A program made the translations under genes and the position numbers. From a bacterium (lineage in GTDB: Bacteria; Krumholzibacteriota; Krumholzibacteriia; LZORAL124-64-63): DNA of 64,000 bases. Below the pieces are notes generated by a model that did not search any database, was not told where the DNA came from, and saw nothing but the letters and a program-made list of their open reading frames with translations. Positions 5,899 to 49,061 of the stretch are shown here, in pieces. The first letter of the stretch is position 1. The number at the start of each line of letters is the position of its first letter. Location: contig JANOEP010000011.1 in assembly GCA_031441465.1 (NCBI GenBank), positions 64,001 through 128,000 of the forward strand, written 5' to 3'.

Positions 5899-5999
5899 GC
5901 AGGGGTCTCCTTAGTGGGCGTCGTCCGGGTGGCGGGGGGGGGACCGGGATCGGTGCCAGGAGACAAAGTAGGCCCCTTGTGGGGGGCGGGCAAGTTCCT

Positions 6000-7325
6000 T
6001 CAGAGAGCGATGATTTCTTGGATATCCGCCTGATCGCCTCCGAATACGATGCCGATCTCCCTCAGCAGGGGGAACGGCGGATCGCCGCCGGCGAAGATGA
6101 AGACGAAATCGTTCGGCAGGATGGCGGGACCGGTCGTCGTGGTCAGCGCCACGGTGTCGGCCTGGATCGCGGTCAGCTGCGAGTCGCCCAGGAAGCGCAC
6201 GGCTCCGGAGGCGATCAGGGCCTCGACCTTGTCCGCGTTGCGTTTCTTGATGCGCAGCAGACGGGGCTTGCGGTAGGAAAGCGTCACTTCGATGTCCGGC
6301 TGGCTGGCCAGGGCGACCGCGGCTTCGACGGCGCTGTCGCCCCCGCCGACGACCAGCACCCGGTTACCCCGGTACAGCGAGGCGTCGATGAGGCGGTAGG
6401 CCACCTTCGCGGCGTCTTCGCCGGCGATGCCGAGCTTGCGCGGCGTGCCACGGCGGCCCAGGGCGAGCACCACGTTCCGGGCGCGATGGTCGCCGGCCGT
6501 CGTGTGGACTTTCAGGTCGCCGTGGCTGCCCGTGATGCTCAGCAGGCGCTCGTCGGTGTGGATCTTCAGGTCGTGCTCCGTGTGCAGGCGCAGCCAGATA
6601 TCCAGCAGGTCCTCCTTGCTGTACTCCTTCTGCAGCAACGGGCCGTACAGGGGGATCACGACCGGCTGGACCAGCACCAGCTTGCGACGGGGGTATTGCA
6701 GGATGGTGCCGCCCGGTCCCTGTTGGTCCAGCACCAGGCAGCGCAGGCCGTGCTGGCGCGCCGTCAGCGCCGCGCTCAGGCCGCCGGGTCCCGCGCCCAC
6801 GACGATCGCGTCCCAGCACGCGTCGCCGGCAGGGAAGGGGCCGCGGGCGACGATCGCCTCCATGGCGCGGCGTCCCTGGTCCACGGCGTTGCTCACCAGA
6901 GCGAACCCGCCCAACTCGCCGGCGACGAAGATCCCCGGCCGGCTGGTCTCGAGTTCCGGGCTGAGCACGGGGATGTCGTCGCGGGTCGTGATGTCTCCCA
7001 GACCGACCTTCAGCGCGCCGACGGGGCAGGCTTCGGCGCAGCGGCCGTGGCCGATGCACCGGGCGCCGTTGGTGATCACGGCCTTGCCGCCGACGATGCC
7101 GAGCACGTCGCCTTCCGGGCAGGCCGCCACGCAGGAGCCGCAGCCGATGCAGGCGTTGGCGTCGATGAGCGGGTACTGGCCGACGGGCCGGTTCATGCCG
7201 AGCGCCACGGTCTCGTCCCGCCGGGCGGCGTCCCGGATCCGGGTGGCGCGGAAGCGCAGGAAGTAGGGAACGAACAGGCCGGCGCCCAGCAGGAGGGCAC
7301 AGCCCCAGATCAGCAACGATTCCAT
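6000..7325 (-). CDS. Membrane-anchored 2x[4Fe-4S] ferredoxin fused to a TrxB/YpdA-like FAD/NAD(P)H oxidoreductase
   Basis: Start MESLLIWGC with a TM helix; CIGCGSCVAACP and CIGHGRCAEACP; GAGPGG (FAD) and VGGGDSAVE (NAD(P)H). Confidence 0.85.
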   Translation of the reverse strand: MESLLIWGCALLLGAGLFVPYFLRFRATRIRDAARRDETVALGMNRPVGQYPLIDANACIGCGSCVAACPEGDVLGIVGGKAVITNGARCIGHGRCAEACPVGALKVGLGDITTRDDIPVLSPELETSRPGIFVAGELGGFALVSNAVDQGRRAMEAIVARGPFPAGDACWDAIVVGAGPGGLSAALTARQHGLRCLVLDQQGPGGTILQYPRRKLVLVQPVVIPLYGPLLQKEYSKEDLLDIWLRLHTEHDLKIHTDERLLSITGSHGDLKVHTTAGDHRARNVVLALGRRGTPRKLGIAGEDAAKVAYRLIDASLYRGNRVLVVGGGDSAVEAAVALASQPDIEVTLSYRKPRLLRIKKRNADKVEALIASGAVRFLGDSQLTAIQADTVALTTTTGPAILPNDFVFIFAGGDPPFPLLREIGIVFGGDQADIQEIIAL

Positions 7326-7342
7326 GTCCCCCCCATGCCGAT

Positions 7343-8965
7343 TCAGAAACGCAGCGAGAGATCGGCGCGCAGACGGTCGGCCTGGAGATCGTCGCCGCCG
7401 TCCCGCTCGTACTCCAGGCCCGCCAGCCAGGCCCGATTCAGGACCTTCCGCGCGCCGATCCTGGCCCAGTGCGAGTTGCGCGTCGCGGCGCCGGTGAGGT
7501 CGTAGTTGTAGAGCCCGGCCGCAAACTGCAGGTCCAGCCCGTCGCGCAGAGCATGATCCAGCCGCAGGGAAGGTGTCAATCCGGACACCCGCGGGCCGTC
7601 GAAGCCCCGCAGGTCCAGGGTCAGGTGGTTGCCGGCTCCCAGGATGCCGGCGCGTCCTACGCCGAAGCCCCAGCTCCAGGTGTCGCCGTCGCGGCCGGCG
7701 CCGCCGCGCACGCCGCCGTCGGCGCTCAACGACCAACCGGCGCCTCCGGTCCAGCGCGTCCGCAGTCGCAGGCCCATCCGCTCGGCGTCGCGGAAGAGGC
7801 TGTCGGGGAGCGAACGGTTCGTCCAAGTGCGGTACAGCTCGCGGCGGTCGTGACTCAGCGAGGCGCTCAGGTTCGGCGTGAATCGCGCGGAGAGGCTGGT
7901 GACCGAGTTGCTCAGGGCGAAGCGACGGCCTTCCGTCGCGTACCGCCAGCCCCGGTTGACTTCCAGTTCGGCGCTCTGGTGCAGGCGGAAGGCGCCCGTG
8001 CGGCCGAGGTCGCCGTCCAGCAGGAGGTACTCGCGGCTGGCTTCGCTGCCGTGGTACTCCCCGACCGCGGCCAGGACGAGATTCCAGGACCGGTCGGCGC
8101 CGTCGTCGTCGGTCCAGGCCAGGAAACCGCCACCCTTGCGCTCGTCGCTGCTCGGCTCGCTGGTGCGCGGGTCGGGCGTGAAGCCCGCGAAGGCGCCGAC
8201 CCGCGTGCCGGCGGCCAGGCGCCGGCTGGCCAGGACCCCGTCGAGCTGGCCGAAACCGCTGACGGCCCGGCTGGTGATCCTGCCCAGGCTGTAGTGCCAG
8301 TCGTCGGCTGGAAGCTCGTGCGAAAGGGTGAAGAGGTAGACGCGGTTGCGCCACTCGTTCTCGGCGGCGGACGAGTAGCCGGCGGCGCGGCGGTTCTGGC
8401 GCAGGGTGCCCCGCACCTGCAGTTCGTGGCCGCCGGCGAACGGTTCGCGAGACCGCAGGTCGAAGCGCAGCGCCGGCTGGGTCAAGTCGAGGTCGGCCTC
8501 GCTGCGGTCGTTGCTGTGCAGCCACTGCAGGGCGAGTCGGCCGCGCAGGAAGAAAGGCTGCCGCGGCGCCGTCGCCGCCGGTCGCGGCACGGGCGCGATC
8601 GACCCGGCGCCGGCGGCGGGCTCCGTGACGGCCTCGGTGTCGGCCGGCGCGGGCGCGGGGCCTTGCCGGATCACGGTGGCCGTGTCGCCGGGTTGGACGT
8701 CCGCCGGCGCACCCGTGATCCGGCAAGAGGCCGAATGCTCGGCCAGGTGCTCGAGCGTGATCTCGGTGACGGGCGCGTCGCGGCGCAGGATCTGCAACAC
8801 GTCGCCCGCGCGCAGGCCGTCGGCGCGGCCGGCGTCGAGGTAGACCTGATCGGCGGACACGTAGCTGACCTTGGCGCGCGGCAGGTCGTCCGCCCGCGCC
8901 GCCGGGGACGCGAGACCGAGGATCAAGATCCCGGCCAGCAACCAAGGGTGCTGTCGCTGTGTCAT
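7343..8965 (-). CDS. Putative outer-membrane beta-barrel protein
   Basis: Signal peptide (SPAARA), small N-terminal domain, Pro/Ala linker, then alternating amphipathic beta strands ending ADLSLRF (terminal Phe beta-signal). Confidence 0.75.
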   Translation of the reverse strand: MTQRQHPWLLAGILILGLASPAARADDLPRAKVSYVSADQVYLDAGRADGLRAGDVLQILRRDAPVTEITLEHLAEHSASCRITGAPADVQPGDTATVIRQGPAPAPADTEAVTEPAAGAGSIAPVPRPAATAPRQPFFLRGRLALQWLHSNDRSEADLDLTQPALRFDLRSREPFAGGHELQVRGTLRQNRRAAGYSSAAENEWRNRVYLFTLSHELPADDWHYSLGRITSRAVSGFGQLDGVLASRRLAAGTRVGAFAGFTPDPRTSEPSSDERKGGGFLAWTDDDGADRSWNLVLAAVGEYHGSEASREYLLLDGDLGRTGAFRLHQSAELEVNRGWRYATEGRRFALSNSVTSLSARFTPNLSASLSHDRRELYRTWTNRSLPDSLFRDAERMGLRLRTRWTGGAGWSLSADGGVRGGAGRDGDTWSWGFGVGRAGILGAGNHLTLDLRGFDGPRVSGLTPSLRLDHALRDGLDLQFAAGLYNYDLTGAATRNSHWARIGARKVLNRAWLAGLEYERDGGDDLQADRLRADLSLRF

Positions 8966-9990
8966 CAGTTACCTCGGGGGTGGCACTGGAAGCAGGCGGC
9001 GCTCTGGTAGGCGTAGCCGTTCTCGCCCTGGTGTCGCTGGTCCGTTTCCGTGCGGTTGTGCTCGTGGCAGAAGATGCACTCGAACACGGCATAGTTCGTC
9101 GGCGTCACGTGGCAGTCGACGCAGGCGTTCCACTCGTTGTTGTGCCGGCCCGAGTAGATCGGGAACAGCGTGTCGTGGTTCCAGTTCGACGGCTGCCAGA
9201 CCGAGGTCGTGTGGCAGGAGGCGCACTGGGTGTTGAAGCCGGCGGCGACGTGGCCGGGATCGTTGGCCGCCTCGTAGTCGGGGCGGTGGCAGGCGTAGCA
9301 GTCGGTCGGCGTGCCCGTGTAGCCCGCGGTGTGGCAGGAGGCGCAGGTCGCAGCGGCGTGGGCGCCGGTCAGCGGGAAGGCCGCCGAGTGGATGAAGGAG
9401 CCGGAGCCCCAATCGCTCGCCGTCATCCCGTGGCAGCTGGAGCAGTCCGTGCTGAAGCCGTTGGCCGCGTGGTCGGGATCGCGCGTCGCTTCGTAGTCGG
9501 TGTCGTGGCAACCGAGGCAGTCGGCGGCGATCGCGGTGTGCTCCTCGCCGGGCGATCCCTGGTGGCAGGCGTCGCAGTCCGCGACGGCGTGGGCGCCGAG
9601 CAGGGGGAAGCCGGTGGCGGGGTGGCGGTTGCGGCTCGCGTCGCGGACGTCCCAGCCGGAGGTGTCGTGGCAGTCTTCGCAGTTCGTGCCGAAGCGCCGG
9701 CGGTGCACGTCGAGGTGGCAGTCGGCGCAGGCCGACGCGACCCGGCGGAACTGCAGGTCCTGATGGCACCCGGAGCAGACGGCCTGGGCGTGCCGGCCGG
9801 TCAGGGCGTAGCCGGTCGTCGTGTGGTCGAACGAGGGCGGCGGCCAGGACACGTTCCACGACGAGGCGTCGTGACAGGCCTCGCAGCGCACGTCGATGTC
9901 CCCGTGGGGGCTGAGGTCCGGGGTCTGGGCTGGAGCCCGGACCGCGACGGACAGGAGGAACGACAACGGCAGCAGCCAGCGTCGGGTCAT
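8965..9990 (-). CDS. Multiheme c-type cytochrome, 13 CxxCH
   Basis: Start MTRRWLL with signal peptide; 13 CxxCH motifs counted; overlaps both neighbours (ATGA and TGATG). Confidence 0.92.
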   Translation of the reverse strand: MTRRWLLPLSFLLSVAVRAPAQTPDLSPHGDIDVRCEACHDASSWNVSWPPPSFDHTTTGYALTGRHAQAVCSGCHQDLQFRRVASACADCHLDVHRRRFGTNCEDCHDTSGWDVRDASRNRHPATGFPLLGAHAVADCDACHQGSPGEEHTAIAADCLGCHDTDYEATRDPDHAANGFSTDCSSCHGMTASDWGSGSFIHSAAFPLTGAHAAATCASCHTAGYTGTPTDCYACHRPDYEAANDPGHVAAGFNTQCASCHTTSVWQPSNWNHDTLFPIYSGRHNNEWNACVDCHVTPTNYAVFECIFCHEHNRTETDQRHQGENGYAYQSAACFQCHPRGN

Positions 9991-11714
9991 GGCCGGTCTC
10001 CCTTGGGTTTCGATTCGAGGAACCCCTGCGTGTGGCAGGCCTCGCAGCGCTTGTCGACCGGGCGGTACCGGACCAGGAAGTCGTCGGCGTCGCCCTCGCG
10101 GAGATGGCAGGCCTGGCAGGCCACGTGCTGATGGCCGCCGGCGAGCGGGAAGGTGGTGTCGCGATCGTGGACGAAGCGCTCCGCTTTCCAGCCGGCGGCG
10201 GTGGTGTGGCAGCGGGTGCAGTCGGTGGCGGGCGGGGTCGTCGCCGCGGCGAACTGGCCGCGGTGCGGATCCTGGTGGCACGCGTCGCAGCGTTCCGGGG
10301 TGGGGCTGAAGCGCAGGCTGTCCGAGGCGGCCCGCCGATCCGGCGCGGCCTGCCGATCCAGTGTGGCCTGCCGATCCTGTGGGGCGTGGCAGGCCCGGCA
10401 GGTGGTCGTCGCGTGCTTGCCCGAGAGCGGGAAGCGCGTGCGGCCGTGGTCGTAGGCCACCTGCCGCCACGAGGCGACGTCGTGGCAGAGCCGGCAACCC
10501 GCTTCGGCCTTCTGCGCCGTGCTCGTGCCGGCGTGGGGATCCCGGTGGCAGTCCGTGCACGCCGCCGCCGGCCGCTGCAGGGGCGTCGGCGCCCCCTGGC
10601 GCGGCGGCGCGTGGCAGGCGCTGCAGGCCACGGCGAGGTGGGCGCCCTGCAGGCCGAAACCGGTGGAGTCGTGGCGCGCGACCGTGAACGACGACGGTTT
10701 GAAGCCGTTCACGGTGTGGCAGCGGCTGCAGGCGTCGTAGGTGCGTCCCTCGGCGGCCTCCGGGTGGCGGTCTTGGTGGCAGCCGTCGCAGCGCGCGTAG
10801 ACCAGGGCGCCGCGGGGCGCGTCCGCGCGGTGGCAGGCGTCGCAGCGCAGGGCCGTGTGGCGCCCCCGCAACGGGTAGCGGGTGCGATCGTGGTCGAAGT
10901 CGCCGCCGGCGACCCGCCGCCAGTCCGCGGGATCGTGGCAGCGGGCGCAATCGGCGCCGAGGGAGCCGGCGTGGGGGTCCTTGTGGCAGGCCGCGCAGCT
11001 CGCGTGCTCGACGGGGCGGTAACGGTGCCAGGTGTCGGCAACGCCTTCGACGGTCTCGGTCGTCGCCCGGTGGCAGCGGTCGCAGGCCAGGTCGCGGTGT
11101 TTCCCTGCGAGGACGAAGTCGGCCTTGGCGTGGTCGAACCCGGGAGCGGGCTTCCAGGCGTCCGGCGTGTGGCAGGTCGTGCAGGCGCCTTCGAACTGGC
11201 CACGGTGTTCGTCGCGGTGGCAGTCCAGGCAACCGGCGCCGAGGCCCAGGTAGGTGCGGCCGGGGTTCTTGCCGCGGTCGCGGACGAGGGAGACGTCCTG
11301 GAGCAGATCCGCCCGGTGGCACTTCCGGCAGTCCAGCTTCCGGTGGGCTCCCGCCAGCGGCCACCCAGCCGCAGCGTGGTCGAAGGCGGCCGGGCCGGCC
11401 GGCCAGTGGATCAGGTCGAAGTCGCGACCCTGGTGCTCGACGTGGCAGGTTGTGCAGCGTTCGTGGCCGGCGGTGGCGTGGAGTCCGCGTCCCGCGGCCA
11501 CCCGCGTGGCGATCTCCTGGTGGCAGGCCAGGCACTTCGGGCCGACTTTCTGGTCGCCCAGCTCGTGGCAGGACGTGCACGCACGGACGCCCTCCAGGTG
11601 CTCGTGAACGCGGGAGAGCTTGCCGGGCGACAGCTGCGCCGCGGCGAGGACCGGGAATCCCGCAATCAGGACAATATTGATCGCAAAATGAGACACACGT
11701 CTCAGAACACCCAT
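9987..11714 (-). CDS. Multiheme c-type cytochrome, 20 CxxCH
   Basis: Signal peptide ...PVLAAA-QLSPG; 20 CxxCH motifs in repeated FDH-x4-(F/Y)PLxGxH-x3-CxxCH three-heme modules. Start codon approximate. Confidence 0.92.
   Translation of the reverse strand: MGVLRRVSHFAINIVLIAGFPVLAAAQLSPGKLSRVHEHLEGVRACTSCHELGDQKVGPKCLACHQEIATRVAAGRGLHATAGHERCTTCHVEHQGRDFDLIHWPAGPAAFDHAAAGWPLAGAHRKLDCRKCHRADLLQDVSLVRDRGKNPGRTYLGLGAGCLDCHRDEHRGQFEGACTTCHTPDAWKPAPGFDHAKADFVLAGKHRDLACDRCHRATTETVEGVADTWHRYRPVEHASCAACHKDPHAGSLGADCARCHDPADWRRVAGGDFDHDRTRYPLRGRHTALRCDACHRADAPRGALVYARCDGCHQDRHPEAAEGRTYDACSRCHTVNGFKPSSFTVARHDSTGFGLQGAHLAVACSACHAPPRQGAPTPLQRPAAACTDCHRDPHAGTSTAQKAEAGCRLCHDVASWRQVAYDHGRTRFPLSGKHATTTCRACHAPQDRQATLDRQAAPDRRAASDSLRFSPTPERCDACHQDPHRGQFAAATTPPATDCTRCHTTAAGWKAERFVHDRDTTFPLAGGHQHVACQACHLREGDADDFLVRYRPVDKRCEACHTQGFLESKPKGDRP
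10324..10377. repeat. 18-bp tandem repeat x3 inside the 20-heme cytochrome gene
   Basis: gaggcggcccgccgatcc / ggcgcggcctgccgatcc / agtgtggcctgccgatcc, encoding DRQATL-DRQAAP-DRRAAS. Confidence 0.8.
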
Positions 11715-12535
11715 CGGTACCCCAGGGCCACGGTTACGGCCACGTGGATCACCATGATGACCAACATGAGGTAAGCAAAGGGTTTGTGGATGACGTGCCA
11801 ATAGTGGAACAACTCCCGGATGCGGTTGTGGAACAGGATTCGACGACCGAGCAAGACCCGCGCCTTGGCGGCCGCCAGGACCGTCATGGAGGCCCCGGCC
11901 GGCAACTGCTTTCGTAACCGCATGCCCAGCAACATGTTGCTCAGAGGCAGGCGCCACAGGCTGCCGCTCGCCGTGGTGGCGGTCGCCAGGGTGGACATCG
12001 TGCGCGCGTCCAGCCCGTGAGCCTCGCGCAGCAGACGGTCGGCCTCCTCGAGCTGGAGCTGGATCTGTTCGATGGTCATGGCTTCGCCCAGCACGTTGCG
12101 CGGCAGTTGCAGGTACAGATACCGTCCGAACACGCCGCTGAGCGCCACGGCCATCATGGACCAGTAGCTCACTGCGACCAGGCCCTGGACCTTGAGCGAA
12201 GTGTGCAGCGTCACCAGCAGAGGTCCCGAGATTCCCAGGAAGATGTGCCCGTCGAGCCAGCGCGCGATGTGCCCTTTGCCGGCAAGCCCGTGCCAGCGCT
12301 TGCGCAGGGAGTAGAGCAGCAGCAGCAGGATCTGCAGGCTGCCGACGATGCCCAGGCCGTGGCCCACCGTGCCGGCCGGACGCAGGCTGCGGAAATCCGG
12401 GTGGTGGGGGCGCAGGTCCAACGGCAGGCTGTAGTAGTCGATTCCGACCACGAGCAGCCAGGTGATCGCGGCGGCGAGCAGGAGATAACTGAATCGCAGC
12501 ACGATGCGGAACCCGCGGGTGCTCCCGGCGGCCAT
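11702..12535 (-). CDS. Polytopic membrane protein, putative heme b-binding (ferric reductase/cytochrome b-like)
   Basis: About 5 TM helices with His residues in or near the membrane: WLDGHIFLG, VTLHTS, FHYWHVIHKP, MVIHVAV. Confidence 0.75.
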   Translation of the reverse strand: MAAGSTRGFRIVLRFSYLLLAAAITWLLVVGIDYYSLPLDLRPHHPDFRSLRPAGTVGHGLGIVGSLQILLLLLYSLRKRWHGLAGKGHIARWLDGHIFLGISGPLLVTLHTSLKVQGLVAVSYWSMMAVALSGVFGRYLYLQLPRNVLGEAMTIEQIQLQLEEADRLLREAHGLDARTMSTLATATTASGSLWRLPLSNMLLGMRLRKQLPAGASMTVLAAAKARVLLGRRILFHNRIRELFHYWHVIHKPFAYLMLVIMVIHVAVTVALGYRWVF

Positions 12536-47942: not shown

Positions 47943-49061
47943 ATGCGGACTTTTCAACAGGCCATGATCGTCGTCGCCTCGCTGACGTTGGGATGGGCGC
48001 CGGTCCAGGCCTTCCACGATGGCGGCGTCGCTTACTGCGCAGGCTGCCACACCATGCATGTGAGCCAGAACGGCGGCCCCGGCTACCACGGGACACCGGG
48101 CGGCAACCCTGATCTGCTGATGTACGGGAACGCCACCGACACGTGTGTGCGTTGTCACTATTTCCGCGGTCAGATCTCGAACGGCCAAGGCCAGGGGCCG
48201 GGTGGGGATTTCTACTGGCTGACGCGCACGTTCACCTGGACCACGCCGGGGGGAACGACGGGGAGCAGTCCCGGCCACACGCACGGACACAACGTGGCCT
48301 GCAACGTGTTCAACATTCCTGCCGATCCGGTTCTCCAGCAGGCGCCCGGCGGGGAATTCCTCAGCAACGAACTCGGCTGCACCAGCTGCCACGATCCCCA
48401 TGGCAACAGGAATTTCCGCATGCTCTACGATTCGCAGCTCGGCCCCAGGTACGTAGGTGATACGCGATTCGCGTTCACGGCCGACGCACCGCTGGCCCGC
48501 GGCAATGCCGGCACCACGCTGGTCGGCGGCGGCGCCAACGAAACCGACGCCCGGCATACCGTCTACAAGAGCGGTTTCAGCGAGTGGTGCGCCAACTGCC
48601 ATCCGTCGATGTTCGAAACAGCCGGCGGGCAGTACATGCATCCCGCCGGCGTCGGGCTCACGCCCACGATCGCTGACCGTTACAACGGATACGTGAGCAC
48701 CGATGATCCGGATGGCGGCATCCAGGCCGCATCCTACATGGGCCTGGTGCCTTTCGAAGCGGTCGATGTCGATCTGTCCTCGGTCGATCCCGCGAACTCG
48801 ACGTCAGGTCCCGCGGCCGGCGACCAGGTGATGTGCCTGTCCTGCCACCGCGCCCACGCGTCGCCGTTCGCCGACGCCGGGCGCTGGGATTTCGCCGCCA
48901 CGTTCCTGGTTGCGGATTCGCATCCCCGGATAGGTGACGGCGGCGCCTCTGCACAGGACATCGCCAACCGCTATTACGGGTACACCTTCACGCCCAACCA
49001 GCGCTCGTTGTGCAACAAGTGCCACGTCAAGGACTTCGGAGACGCGCCGTACACTCCCTGA
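47943..49061 (+). CDS. OmcS-family hexaheme c-type cytochrome
   Basis: Mature start FHDGGVAYCAGCHTMH; PGGDFYW; GHNV; CTSCHDPHG; SEWCANCH; HPAG; CLSCHRAHAS; QRSLCNKCHVKD. Six CxxCH, collinear with Geobacter OmcS as recalled. Confidence 0.88.
   Translation: MRTFQQAMIVVASLTLGWAPVQAFHDGGVAYCAGCHTMHVSQNGGPGYHGTPGGNPDLLMYGNATDTCVRCHYFRGQISNGQGQGPGGDFYWLTRTFTWTTPGGTTGSSPGHTHGHNVACNVFNIPADPVLQQAPGGEFLSNELGCTSCHDPHGNRNFRMLYDSQLGPRYVGDTRFAFTADAPLARGNAGTTLVGGGANETDARHTVYKSGFSEWCANCHPSMFETAGGQYMHPAGVGLTPTIADRYNGYVSTDDPDGGIQAASYMGLVPFEAVDVDLSSVDPANSTSGPAAGDQVMCLSCHRAHASPFADAGRWDFAATFLVADSHPRIGDGGASAQDIANRYYGYTFTPNQRSLCNKCHVKDFGDAPYTP

Follow-up and report, generated by a model that had tools for sequence, protein, structure and literature searches.

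Five co-oriented genes on the minus strand of a 64,000-nucleotide window from a bacterium of the Krumholzibacteriota (assembly GCA_031441465.1, contig JANOEP010000011.1, positions 64,001 to 128,000) raise the question of where a multihaem electron conduit takes its electrons from and in which direction they run. The source assembly is 3.49 Mb in 74 contigs (~70% G+C, 96.8% complete). The genes encode an inner-membrane protein (IMP, P0001), two c-type cytochromes (P0002 and P0003), a predicted outer-membrane barrel (P0004) and a membrane-anchored Fe-S flavoprotein (P0005). We give an even chance to the reading that this operon is a trans-envelope conduit of the type described as PCC3, with P0005 as an NAD(P)H-oxidising entry on the cytoplasmic side. 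An earlier interpretation made from the letters alone (the sequence-only reading) had described five genes with overlapping or closely spaced ends, and both coordinates and junctions were reproduced exactly, with overlaps of 13 bp (11702-11714), 4 bp (9987-9990) and 1 bp (8965) and a gap of 17 bp (7326-7342). Its 33 CxxCH motifs were counted as 20 in P0002 and 13 in P0003, its His-rich polytopic membrane protein is P0001 with 13 His and five predicted transmembrane (TM) helices, and its TM-anchored Fe-S/FAD enzyme is P0005.

Two peptide patterns of the IMP were run against 185,579 species genomes; we confirmed 363 stretches, kept the best 80 and determined their gene content using tblastn of the five proteins. 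All five genes were found in 47 of the 80 loci, always on one strand, a clustering far beyond chance, and in 31 of the other 33 loci the sequence stops within 7.5 kb downstream of the IMP gene. The sequence-only reading had made its proposal depend on the cluster being conserved as a unit, and the synteny comparison bears this out. Numbered as P0001 to P0005, the genes were ordered 1-2-3-4-5 in 33 loci, 1-5-2-3-4 in 11 and 5-1-2-3-4 in 3. P0005 was present in 47 of 47 complete loci and was adjacent to the IMP gene in 14 of these, and a barrel gene accompanied the cytochrome genes in 47 of the 49 loci with sufficient flank. The record titles of the loci name Krumholzibacteriia, Latescibacterota, Zixibacteria, Calditrichota (including a metagenome-assembled genome of Caldithrix abyssi), KSB1, Neomarinimicrobiota, Ignavibacteria, Eisenbacteria, Thermoanaerobaculia and Vicinamibacteria.

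Four of the five genes fit PCC3 by content, order and IMP motifs, with the type members compared by description only and the descriptions taken from parts of the published accounts. PCC3 was defined by He, Barco, Emerson and Roden in 2017 (Front Microbiol 8:1584) as a porin, two multihaem cytochromes and an IMP. He et al. 2017 reported a median of 34 haems for the 'extracellular' and of 21 for the 'periplasmic' cytochrome, and an IMP of ~300 aa with five TM helices, an SGXXG motif on TM4 and WX3HX13H on TM3 and TM5, in hosts of the Alpha-, Beta- and Gammaproteobacteria. In Sideroxydans lithotrophicus ES-1 the set consists of Slit_1446 (IMP), Slit_1447 (periplasmic cytochrome), Slit_1448 (extracellular cytochrome) and Slit_1449 (porin). 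The window has the same order of IMP, cytochrome, cytochrome and barrel as Slit_1446-1449, an IMP of the same size class and TM count, and all three IMP motifs. The periplasmic cytochrome has ~21 haems in PCC3 and 20 in the window, the second cytochrome, with P0003 as its counterpart here, is variable (10-35 haems in Gallionellaceae; Hoover et al. 2023), and a low residue-to-haem ratio and repeats occur in both. The two sets differ in their hosts, which are proteobacterial for PCC3 and belong to FCB-group phyla and Acidobacteriota for the window type, and may differ in their barrels, as PCC3 porins were described with many TM motifs (up to 42, by another predictor) as compared to 22 strands in the AlphaFold2 (AF2) model of P0004. 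He et al. 2017 also placed an Fe-S (pfam13247) gene upstream of the one for the IMP in PCC4 subgroup II.

New beyond the PCC3 texts covered are the flavoprotein and the NAD(P)H feed. The sequence-only reading had proposed a distinct extracellular electron transfer (EET) system; that proposal is only partly right, as four of the five genes match PCC3. No mention of a flavoprotein in PCC3 was found in the portions of the literature covered, which is no proof of its absence from print. The window cluster was likewise not described in the portions covered of the literature on Krumholzibacteriota, Marinimicrobia, Caldithrix, Zixibacteria, bioanode communities and peat EET clusters. In the accounts of MtrCAB and MtoAB that we drew on, as in the window, a multihaem cytochrome gene lies beside a large barrel gene and a haem wire across the outer membrane is presumed. 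In contrast, the MtrA/DmsE decahaem family, the lipoprotein cytochrome and the CymA-type quinol dehydrogenase of those systems have no counterpart in the operon.

P0005 begins with a hydrophobic helix followed by an Arg run, which places the bulk of the protein in the cytoplasm. The Fe-S motifs CxxCxxCxxxCP and CxxHxxCxxxCP follow, and then a Pyr_redox_3 / Pyr_redox_2 module (Pfam matches Pyr_redox_3, 4.7e-36, and Fer4_10, 1.3e-11) with two dinucleotide-binding motifs in the protein. The nearest solved proteins were YpdA/Bdr (7a7b, 1.6e-19), thioredoxin reductases and ferredoxin-NADP reductases (FNRs) of the thioredoxin reductase-like type, and the scores for curated families stayed far below the cut-offs (TIGR04018, 144.8 versus 339.9; TIGR01292, 72.5 versus 343.45). 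Across 34 orthologues C59, C65, C69, C90, H93, C96, C100 and the motifs GGGDSA and SYR are invariant, C62 of the first Fe-S motif is substituted in some, and no invariant Cys lies outside the Fe-S motifs. A role of P0005 in disulphide reduction, as a bacillithiol or thioredoxin reductase, was therefore rejected, because a conserved redox Cys is missing and the family scores fall short of the cut-offs. P0005 looks like a flavoenzyme of the NAD(P)H:ferredoxin type that is anchored to the membrane and carries a fused ferredoxin domain. Basic residues lie behind its second Rossmann motif, and on these we would guess at a preference for NADPH. The invariant His of the second Fe-S motif (residues 90-101, window 7034-7069) suggests a cluster ligated by three Cys and one His. 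The distal cluster of [NiFe] hydrogenases, which donates electrons to cytochrome b, has this ligation.

The link between IMP and flavoprotein was also evident across the window's phylum. The IMP was detected in 81 of 201 genomes (53 of the 125 high-quality ones), in 7/7 genomes of the genus and in 0/42 genomes of one family, and this patchy distribution marks it as an accessory trait. A P0005-type match that included the Fe-S domain was found in 74 of the 81 IMP-positive and in 0 of the 120 IMP-negative genomes, which is to be taken as a pattern and not as a statistic as these genomes are kin and not independent samples. In the seven IMP-positive genomes without such a match the IMP match was fragmentary (G104, G176), the assembly was in 790 contigs (G123), a partial match lay 5 kb from the IMP gene (G137) or the IMPs were more divergent (G022, G028, G056). 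A second class of matches covers only positions 116-430 of P0005, without the TM or Fe-S part, and lies in open reading frames (ORFs) of 534-994 aa in genomes with and without the IMP (Table 1); it is a paralogue of P0005.

On plasmids the IMP keeps company with other reductases. A tblastn search of P0001 against 72,556 plasmids returned 6 records, of which 4 with 5 loci were analysed (H3 and H5 were left out), and in all 5 loci an NAD(P)H-type flavo-Fe-S gene lay directly upstream or downstream of the IMP gene. Plasmid pEMTOL02 of Emticicia oligotrophica DSM 17448, a cultured Bacteroidota isolate, holds the whole five-gene set (EMTOL_RS21085-21115, annotated and uncharacterised), with 37% identity to the window for the IMP, 39% for the flavoprotein and 21% for the barrel (538 aa, E 7e-17). 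Its cytochromes carry 23 and 40 haems as compared to 20 and 13 in the window, and its order is 1-5-2-3-4, with the P0005 orthologue adjoining the IMP gene, instead of 1-2-3-4-5. A ccsA gene precedes this plasmid-borne cluster and a gene for a GW-domain lipoprotein follows it. On pMSHV of Sphingobium herbicidovorans an 825-aa protein with Pyr_redox_3, two cNMP-binding domains and Fer4 is encoded upstream of a distant alphaproteobacterial IMP (29% identity to P0001, E 8e-12), its stop codon overlapping the IMP start; a 612-aa protein beside the large cytochrome at this locus gave no BLAST match to P0004. On plasmids of Methylophaga pinxianii and Legionella pneumophila, overlapping genes encode a protein with FAD_binding_6, NAD_binding_1 and Fer2, an IMP-like protein and a c7-type cytochrome with 7 haems. 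The partner proteins in Legionella and Methylophaga have weak matches to 'Ferric reductase NAD binding' (PF08030), and a second Sphingobium locus repeats the FNR-type layout with a '2Fe-2S' protein, by annotation only.

Three unrelated NAD(P)H flavo-Fe-S architectures thus occupy the same genomic position, and we read this as replacement of the electron-donor subunit. The comparison favours NAD(P)H rather than quinol as the source on the cytoplasmic side of the IMP. Were the IMP instead to act on quinol as a dehydrogenase or on quinone as a reductase, P0005 would have an accessory role, for instance in redox sensing, cofactor reduction or repair. The HX13H pairs do resemble those of bc1 cytochrome b and hydrogenase cytochrome b, to which, along with the FRD pattern, they were likened by He et al. 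2017; the Sphingobium IMP has a sub-threshold Ni_hydr_CYTB match (22.1 bits, cut-off 30.1), and the host has a quinone-linked chain. Against a quinone role stand the translational coupling of all three reductase architectures to IMP genes, the near-perfect co-occurrence of IMP and P0005 and the lack of any identified quinone-site motif in our IMP analyses, and we consider it very improbable.

Two further features of the short plasmid modules were observed. At the Methylophaga and Sphingobium loci a DUF1622 gene follows the module, and in the short-module reductases an N-terminal 'HHP' stretch recalls the periplasmic RPHHPDF loop of the IMP.

The IMP itself belongs to a large family, with >1364 relatives of P0001 at 90% clustering and, in a profile search, 4191 representative clusters at E<=1e-3 and 825 at 1e-30. 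Seven of its 13 His (H59, H97, H111, H244, H247, H250 and H264) were invariant in 30 relatives and again in a second set of 34. The motifs are W93x3H97x13H111 on TM3, S133GVFG137 on TM4 and W246x3H250x13H264 on TM5, and their His, W, S and G positions are invariant in the alignments of relatives. The AF2 model (mean predicted local distance difference test, pLDDT, 83.9) is all helical; five helices are of membrane length, and helices 4 and 5 are separated by an insert of ~90 residues that is itself helical. The positive-inside rule, applied to the sequence, puts H97 and H250 close to the cytoplasmic side of the membrane and H111 and H264 close to the periplasmic side. This arrangement is that of two stacked bis-His b-haems, making P0001 a putative transmembrane electron carrier with two b-haems. 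A predicted complex of IMP, P0005, two haems and two 4Fe-4S clusters scored 0.08 as compared to a mark of 0.32, in a run without controls that is evidence neither way.

Apparent fusions of the IMP were seen in the representative library, two with a c7-type cytochrome (P0259 and P0302, 886 and 663 aa) and one in which an N-terminal IMP part is joined to a C-terminal Pyr_redox_3 part (P0291, 418 aa). These may be real fusions or, because the genes overlap, frameshift or assembly artefacts; fusion to a cytochrome would agree in topology with an IMP whose C-terminus lies in the periplasm. For the IMP homologue P0171 the Atlas listed three nearest clusters with no common Pfam family, one of them auto-named 'pyridine nucleotide-disulfide oxidoreductase family protein', which is a lead only.

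The pairing of IMP and P0005 would work like an NADPH oxidase (NOX) or ferric reductase (FRE) without being a member of that family. Both use NAD(P)H, a flavin, two bis-His b-haems on HX13H helices and an acceptor on the outside. NOX and FRE match PF01794 and have six TM helices whereas P0001 has no PF01794 match and five, and their FNR-type FAD/NADPH domain is fused whereas the window has a separate TM-anchored protein of the thioredoxin reductase fold with two Fe-S clusters interposed. Their acceptor is O2 or Fe(III) directly and in the window it would be a multihaem c wire. The bacterial protein MsrQ, fed by a flavin reductase, follows a comparable logic. P0001 has no match to the Prokaryotic cytochrome b561 / Ni_hydr_CYTB family (PF01292). 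The Hmc and Tmc complexes of sulphate reducers move electrons across the inner membrane and are likewise encoded in one operon, in which a multihaem cytochrome of the c3 type in the periplasm is combined with a cytochrome b in the membrane and an Fe-S protein in the cytoplasm. Their HdrD-like and NrfD-like subunits are absent here, and the operon adds the barrel and the NAD(P)H flavoprotein.

On the periplasmic side P0002 has a Sec-type signal peptide, 27 His in addition to those of its 20 CxxCH motifs and a Cytochrome_C7 match (8.9e-24) in 5 stretches. P0003 has a signal peptide, haem modules arranged as 1 + 4x3 and a Cytochrome_C7 match of 3.3e-15. Neither contains CxxxCH, CxxxxCH or CxxCK, and the residues per haem are 27.5 in P0002 and 24.3 in P0003. 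Motif spacing and Cytochrome_C7 stretches show that both are built of c7-type three-haem modules. The sequence-only reading had set such modules against the MtrA decahaem pattern, correctly as judged by the motif gaps and by TIGR03508 scores (48 bits for P0002 and 20.9 for P0003, cut-off 192.2) on which the MtrA/DmsE family was rejected. The HmcA family was rejected for P0002 (NF045713, 47.2 bits, cut-off 400).

Eighteen of the complete loci (47 in all) were inspected for cytochrome variation. Ten of them have 20 CxxCH in the first cytochrome (11 including one split ORF), four Marinimicrobia-type loci have 17, and one each has 18 and 23, with no count for one. The second has 16-58 CxxCH among the inspected relatives, 13 in P0003 and 40 in Emticicia, and lengthens by repeating the same module (40, 49 and 58 CxxCH in relatives); P0003 aligns with the C-terminal end of the long forms. 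A near-fixed first and a freely varying second cytochrome fit a set periplasmic span with an external extension, an argument made for PCC3 in the account of Hoover et al. 2023, as far as we drew on it.

Additional genes were found at some of the inspected loci. An extra cytochrome of 261-276 aa with 8-10 haems, not found in the window, lies directly upstream of the barrel gene in 7 of the 18 loci; its C-terminus resembles that of the long cytochrome and in those lineages it may be seated in the barrel. Two Marinimicrobia-type loci have an additional ORF of 272-288 aa between the flavoprotein and first cytochrome genes.

P0004 gave no Pfam or NCBIfam family above cut-off, and all of its 48 sequence relatives are unnamed or 'hypothetical'. 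An AF2 model built with an alignment of 30 of these relatives (mean pLDDT 81.2) consists of a signal peptide, a small N-terminal beta domain (~26-100), a low-confidence linker and, over residues 139-539, 22 beta strands with a C-terminal Phe and no plug domain. The barrel ending in Phe of the sequence-only reading, which had tied its case to this 540-aa protein folding as a barrel, is thus what AF2 predicts. The best structural matches of the barrel in VIA-align were 22-strand TonB-dependent receptor barrels, with PirA (5fp2_B) at Z 19.4, root mean square deviation (rmsd) 4.8 and 328 aligned residues and FyuA (4epa_A) at Z 18.0, rmsd 5.2 and 347 aligned. The MtrB barrel has 26 strands as compared to the 22, the TonB-receptor size, of P0004. 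MtrB was not among the matches listed in three structural searches with the barrel, all of them generic barrels, and the two may still be similar. The N-terminal domain resembles FlgT (8z5n_5; Z 12.6, rmsd 1.6, 75 aligned, 28% identity), a protein of the flagellar LPHT ring.

These results bear on whether the system reaches the cell surface at all. An NAD(P)H-driven system could be confined to the periplasm, with the multihaem cytochromes as a reductase or electron store and the barrel as a substrate porin or anchor. The short plasmid modules of reductase, IMP and 7-haem cytochrome have no adjoining barrel gene, so an outer-membrane part is not needed for the core module to work; they sit within copper or heavy-metal resistance islands of the Methylophaga, Legionella and Sphingobium plasmids and may form a periplasmic metal-reducing circuit. 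A lipobox was also found in neither P0002 nor P0003, as read from their sequences. Set against confinement are the retention of the barrel gene with the cytochromes, the size of the 22-strand plug-less barrel, and second cytochromes of 40-58 haems, which are hard to reconcile with a periplasm of set width. We judge confinement to the periplasm unlikely.

In the conduit that we propose, NAD(P)H would reduce the FAD of P0005 on the cytoplasmic face and the electrons would pass its two Fe-S clusters, the second with three Cys and the invariant His as putative ligands. Two b-haems between TM3 and TM5 of the IMP would carry them over the inner membrane, the 20-haem cytochrome, its haem number nearly fixed across phyla, would bridge the periplasm, and the 13-haem cytochrome would take them through the plug-less barrel, or past it, to an acceptor outside the cell such as a metal oxide, humic matter, an electrode or a partner cell. 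The inner-membrane part would then be a split NADPH oxidase or ferric reductase that bypasses the quinone pool. Electron export from the negative side of a membrane is aided by the membrane potential and dissipates it. The conduit would on this account be a strongly driven sink for reducing equivalents rather than a coupling site. Of the wiring from NAD(P)H to the surface in the sequence-only reading, the path is favoured by the comparative evidence, and steps such as haem b binding, barrel passage and direction keep a conditional standing. More tentatively, and at somewhat less than an even chance, the PCC3 conduits and the wider IMP family may be quinone-independent NAD(P)H:extracellular-acceptor oxidoreductases, a bacterial counterpart of NOX and FRE lengthened by a haem wire across periplasm and outer membrane.

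For PCC3 the opposite direction has been put forward in print as a hypothesis (He et al. 2017; Hoover et al. 2023, in the parts of these accounts that we drew on), by which electrons from uptake or from the oxidation of Fe(II) or minerals would enter the quinone pool through the IMP, or here reach NAD(P)+ through P0005. Hoover et al. 2023 noted evidence for either direction in Mto/Mtr-type conduits, and the terminal oxidases of the host could take inward electrons. By established bioenergetics, inward flow from Fe(II)-type donors would be doubly uphill, as the electrons would have to overcome the membrane potential and also climb to that of the NAD(P)+/NAD(P)H couple, and no coupling device is visible in the operon. 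What constantly accompanies the IMP is a reductase of the NAD(P)H type, not a protein with a quinone site, and no lineage among the hosts of related loci was recorded as an iron oxidiser in this analysis. The function of PCC3 is itself unverified even in iron oxidisers, and the parts of 2025-2026 papers covered still call it functionally unverified or uncharacterised. We consider inward flow distinctly unlikely.

Several points weigh against an outward NAD(P)H-fed conduit. The model of He et al. 2017 has a quinone-active IMP and inward flow from Fe(II), and the PCC3 descriptions contain no gene like the fifth one conserved here. P0001 had zero matches in Pfam and NCBIfam, its model matched no solved fold in the PDB with Foldseek at E<=0.001 and a hidden Markov model of the IMP family gave only chance-level matches to PDB sequences. 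The sole VIA-align match to span the membrane bundle, the E. coli dihaem CybB (5oc0_A; Z 7.8, rmsd 3.0, 133/174 aligned), lies within the background of helical models and is thus within noise. We infer haem b binding, IMP-flavoprotein contact, passage of a cytochrome through the P0004 barrel and flow direction, and presume an export route for P0003, a cytochrome lacking a lipobox like P0002. One locus (L054) has no barrel within 9 kb, another from Calditrichota (L062, 9001-9840) has the IMP alone with ~9 kb on either side and the other four genes missing, and the seven genomes with an IMP and no Fe-S-containing P0005-type match and the kinship of the phylum genomes count on the same side. The host genome also encodes complex I (two loci), two haem-copper oxidases and a bd-like oxidase, and such a host has no obvious need for a sink that conserves no energy.

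In this host, a respiring one, the conduit would be an accessory route. Each of the five genes is present in one copy in the host genome, which also encodes CcsA-type cytochrome c maturation. Upstream the operon has a divergent ORF for an OPT-type transporter as its neighbour, and downstream a peptidase-T-like ORF. Terminator-like hairpins were found at 2 sites as compared to a mean of 2.0 in shuffles, making the hairpin past P0005 weak evidence for an operon end. Further large multihaem ORFs lie on other contigs, and one with 6 CxxCH lies within the window; no IMP or P0005 paralogue adjoins any of them (Table 1).

Table 1. Coordinates of the operon and of related features (window positions unless a locus, genome or contig handle is given)
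Feature	Position	Strand	Basis or remark
P0001, IMP (inner-membrane protein), 277 aa	11702-12535	minus	ORF translation
P0002, 20-haem c-type cytochrome, 575 aa	9987-11714	minus	ORF, CxxCH count, Pfam
P0003, 13-haem c-type cytochrome, 341 aa	8965-9990	minus	ORF, CxxCH count, Pfam
P0004, predicted outer-membrane barrel, 540 aa	7343-8965	minus	ORF, AF2 model
P0005, membrane-anchored Fe-S flavoprotein, 441 aa	6000-7325	minus	ORF, Pfam
Terminator-like hairpin, possible operon end	5972-5987	minus	13 bases past P0005 stop codon
Emticicia five-gene cluster	L082:8896-21480 = NC_018749.1 78197-90781		
Short three-gene modules (reductase, IMP-like, 7-haem cytochrome)	L084:6938-10715; L085:6881-10352; L086:8465-11837		
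Long second cytochromes in related loci	L020:11590-15240; L081:11481-15803; L035:13417-16737		
Extra 8-10-haem cytochrome	L030:14361-15179; L035:16716-17531; L040:16284-17090; L069:15767-16594; L060:13647-14477; L061:16134-16937; L081:15828-16613		
Additional 272-288 aa ORF, Marinimicrobia-type loci	L035:11188-12006; L040:11207-12073		
P0005 paralogue, matches to 116-430	G055:C3:43432-44358; G040:C41:17740-18684		
Multihaem ORF, host genome	C19:12281-15514		42 CxxCH
Multihaem ORFs, host genome	C22:33647-38226		28 + 12 CxxCH
Multihaem ORF, host genome	C16:178109-180988		19 CxxCH
Multihaem ORF, host genome	C10:92834-93976		13 CxxCH
ORF with CxxCH motifs, in the window	47943-49061 (C11:111943-113061)		6 CxxCH

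Together these data show that the operon is real and conserved, and the flavoprotein shifts both the likely electron source and the likely direction of flow. In the portions of the literature covered, PCC3 is repeatedly cited as a candidate for iron oxidation or EET and its inner-membrane entry has so far been guessed to be quinone-active. The partnership of the IMP with three reductase architectures turns this into a testable hypothesis, a route from NAD(P)H via haem b to haem c. The analysis also takes the system into many uncultured phyla of the FCB group and into Acidobacteriota, and Emticicia oligotrophica DSM 17448 with its plasmid pEMTOL02 is a cultured carrier. If the hypothesis is true, the iron-oxidation role assumed for PCC3 would need revision, and cytoplasmic redox carriers would be wired to the cell surface independently of quinone. 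Uncultured FCB-group heterotrophs (Krumholzibacteriia, Zixibacteria, Marinimicrobia, Calditrichota and KSB1) would then dump cytoplasmic reducing power directly onto minerals, humic matter or partner cells, with a bearing on carbon turnover in sediment and wastewater and on bioelectrochemistry.

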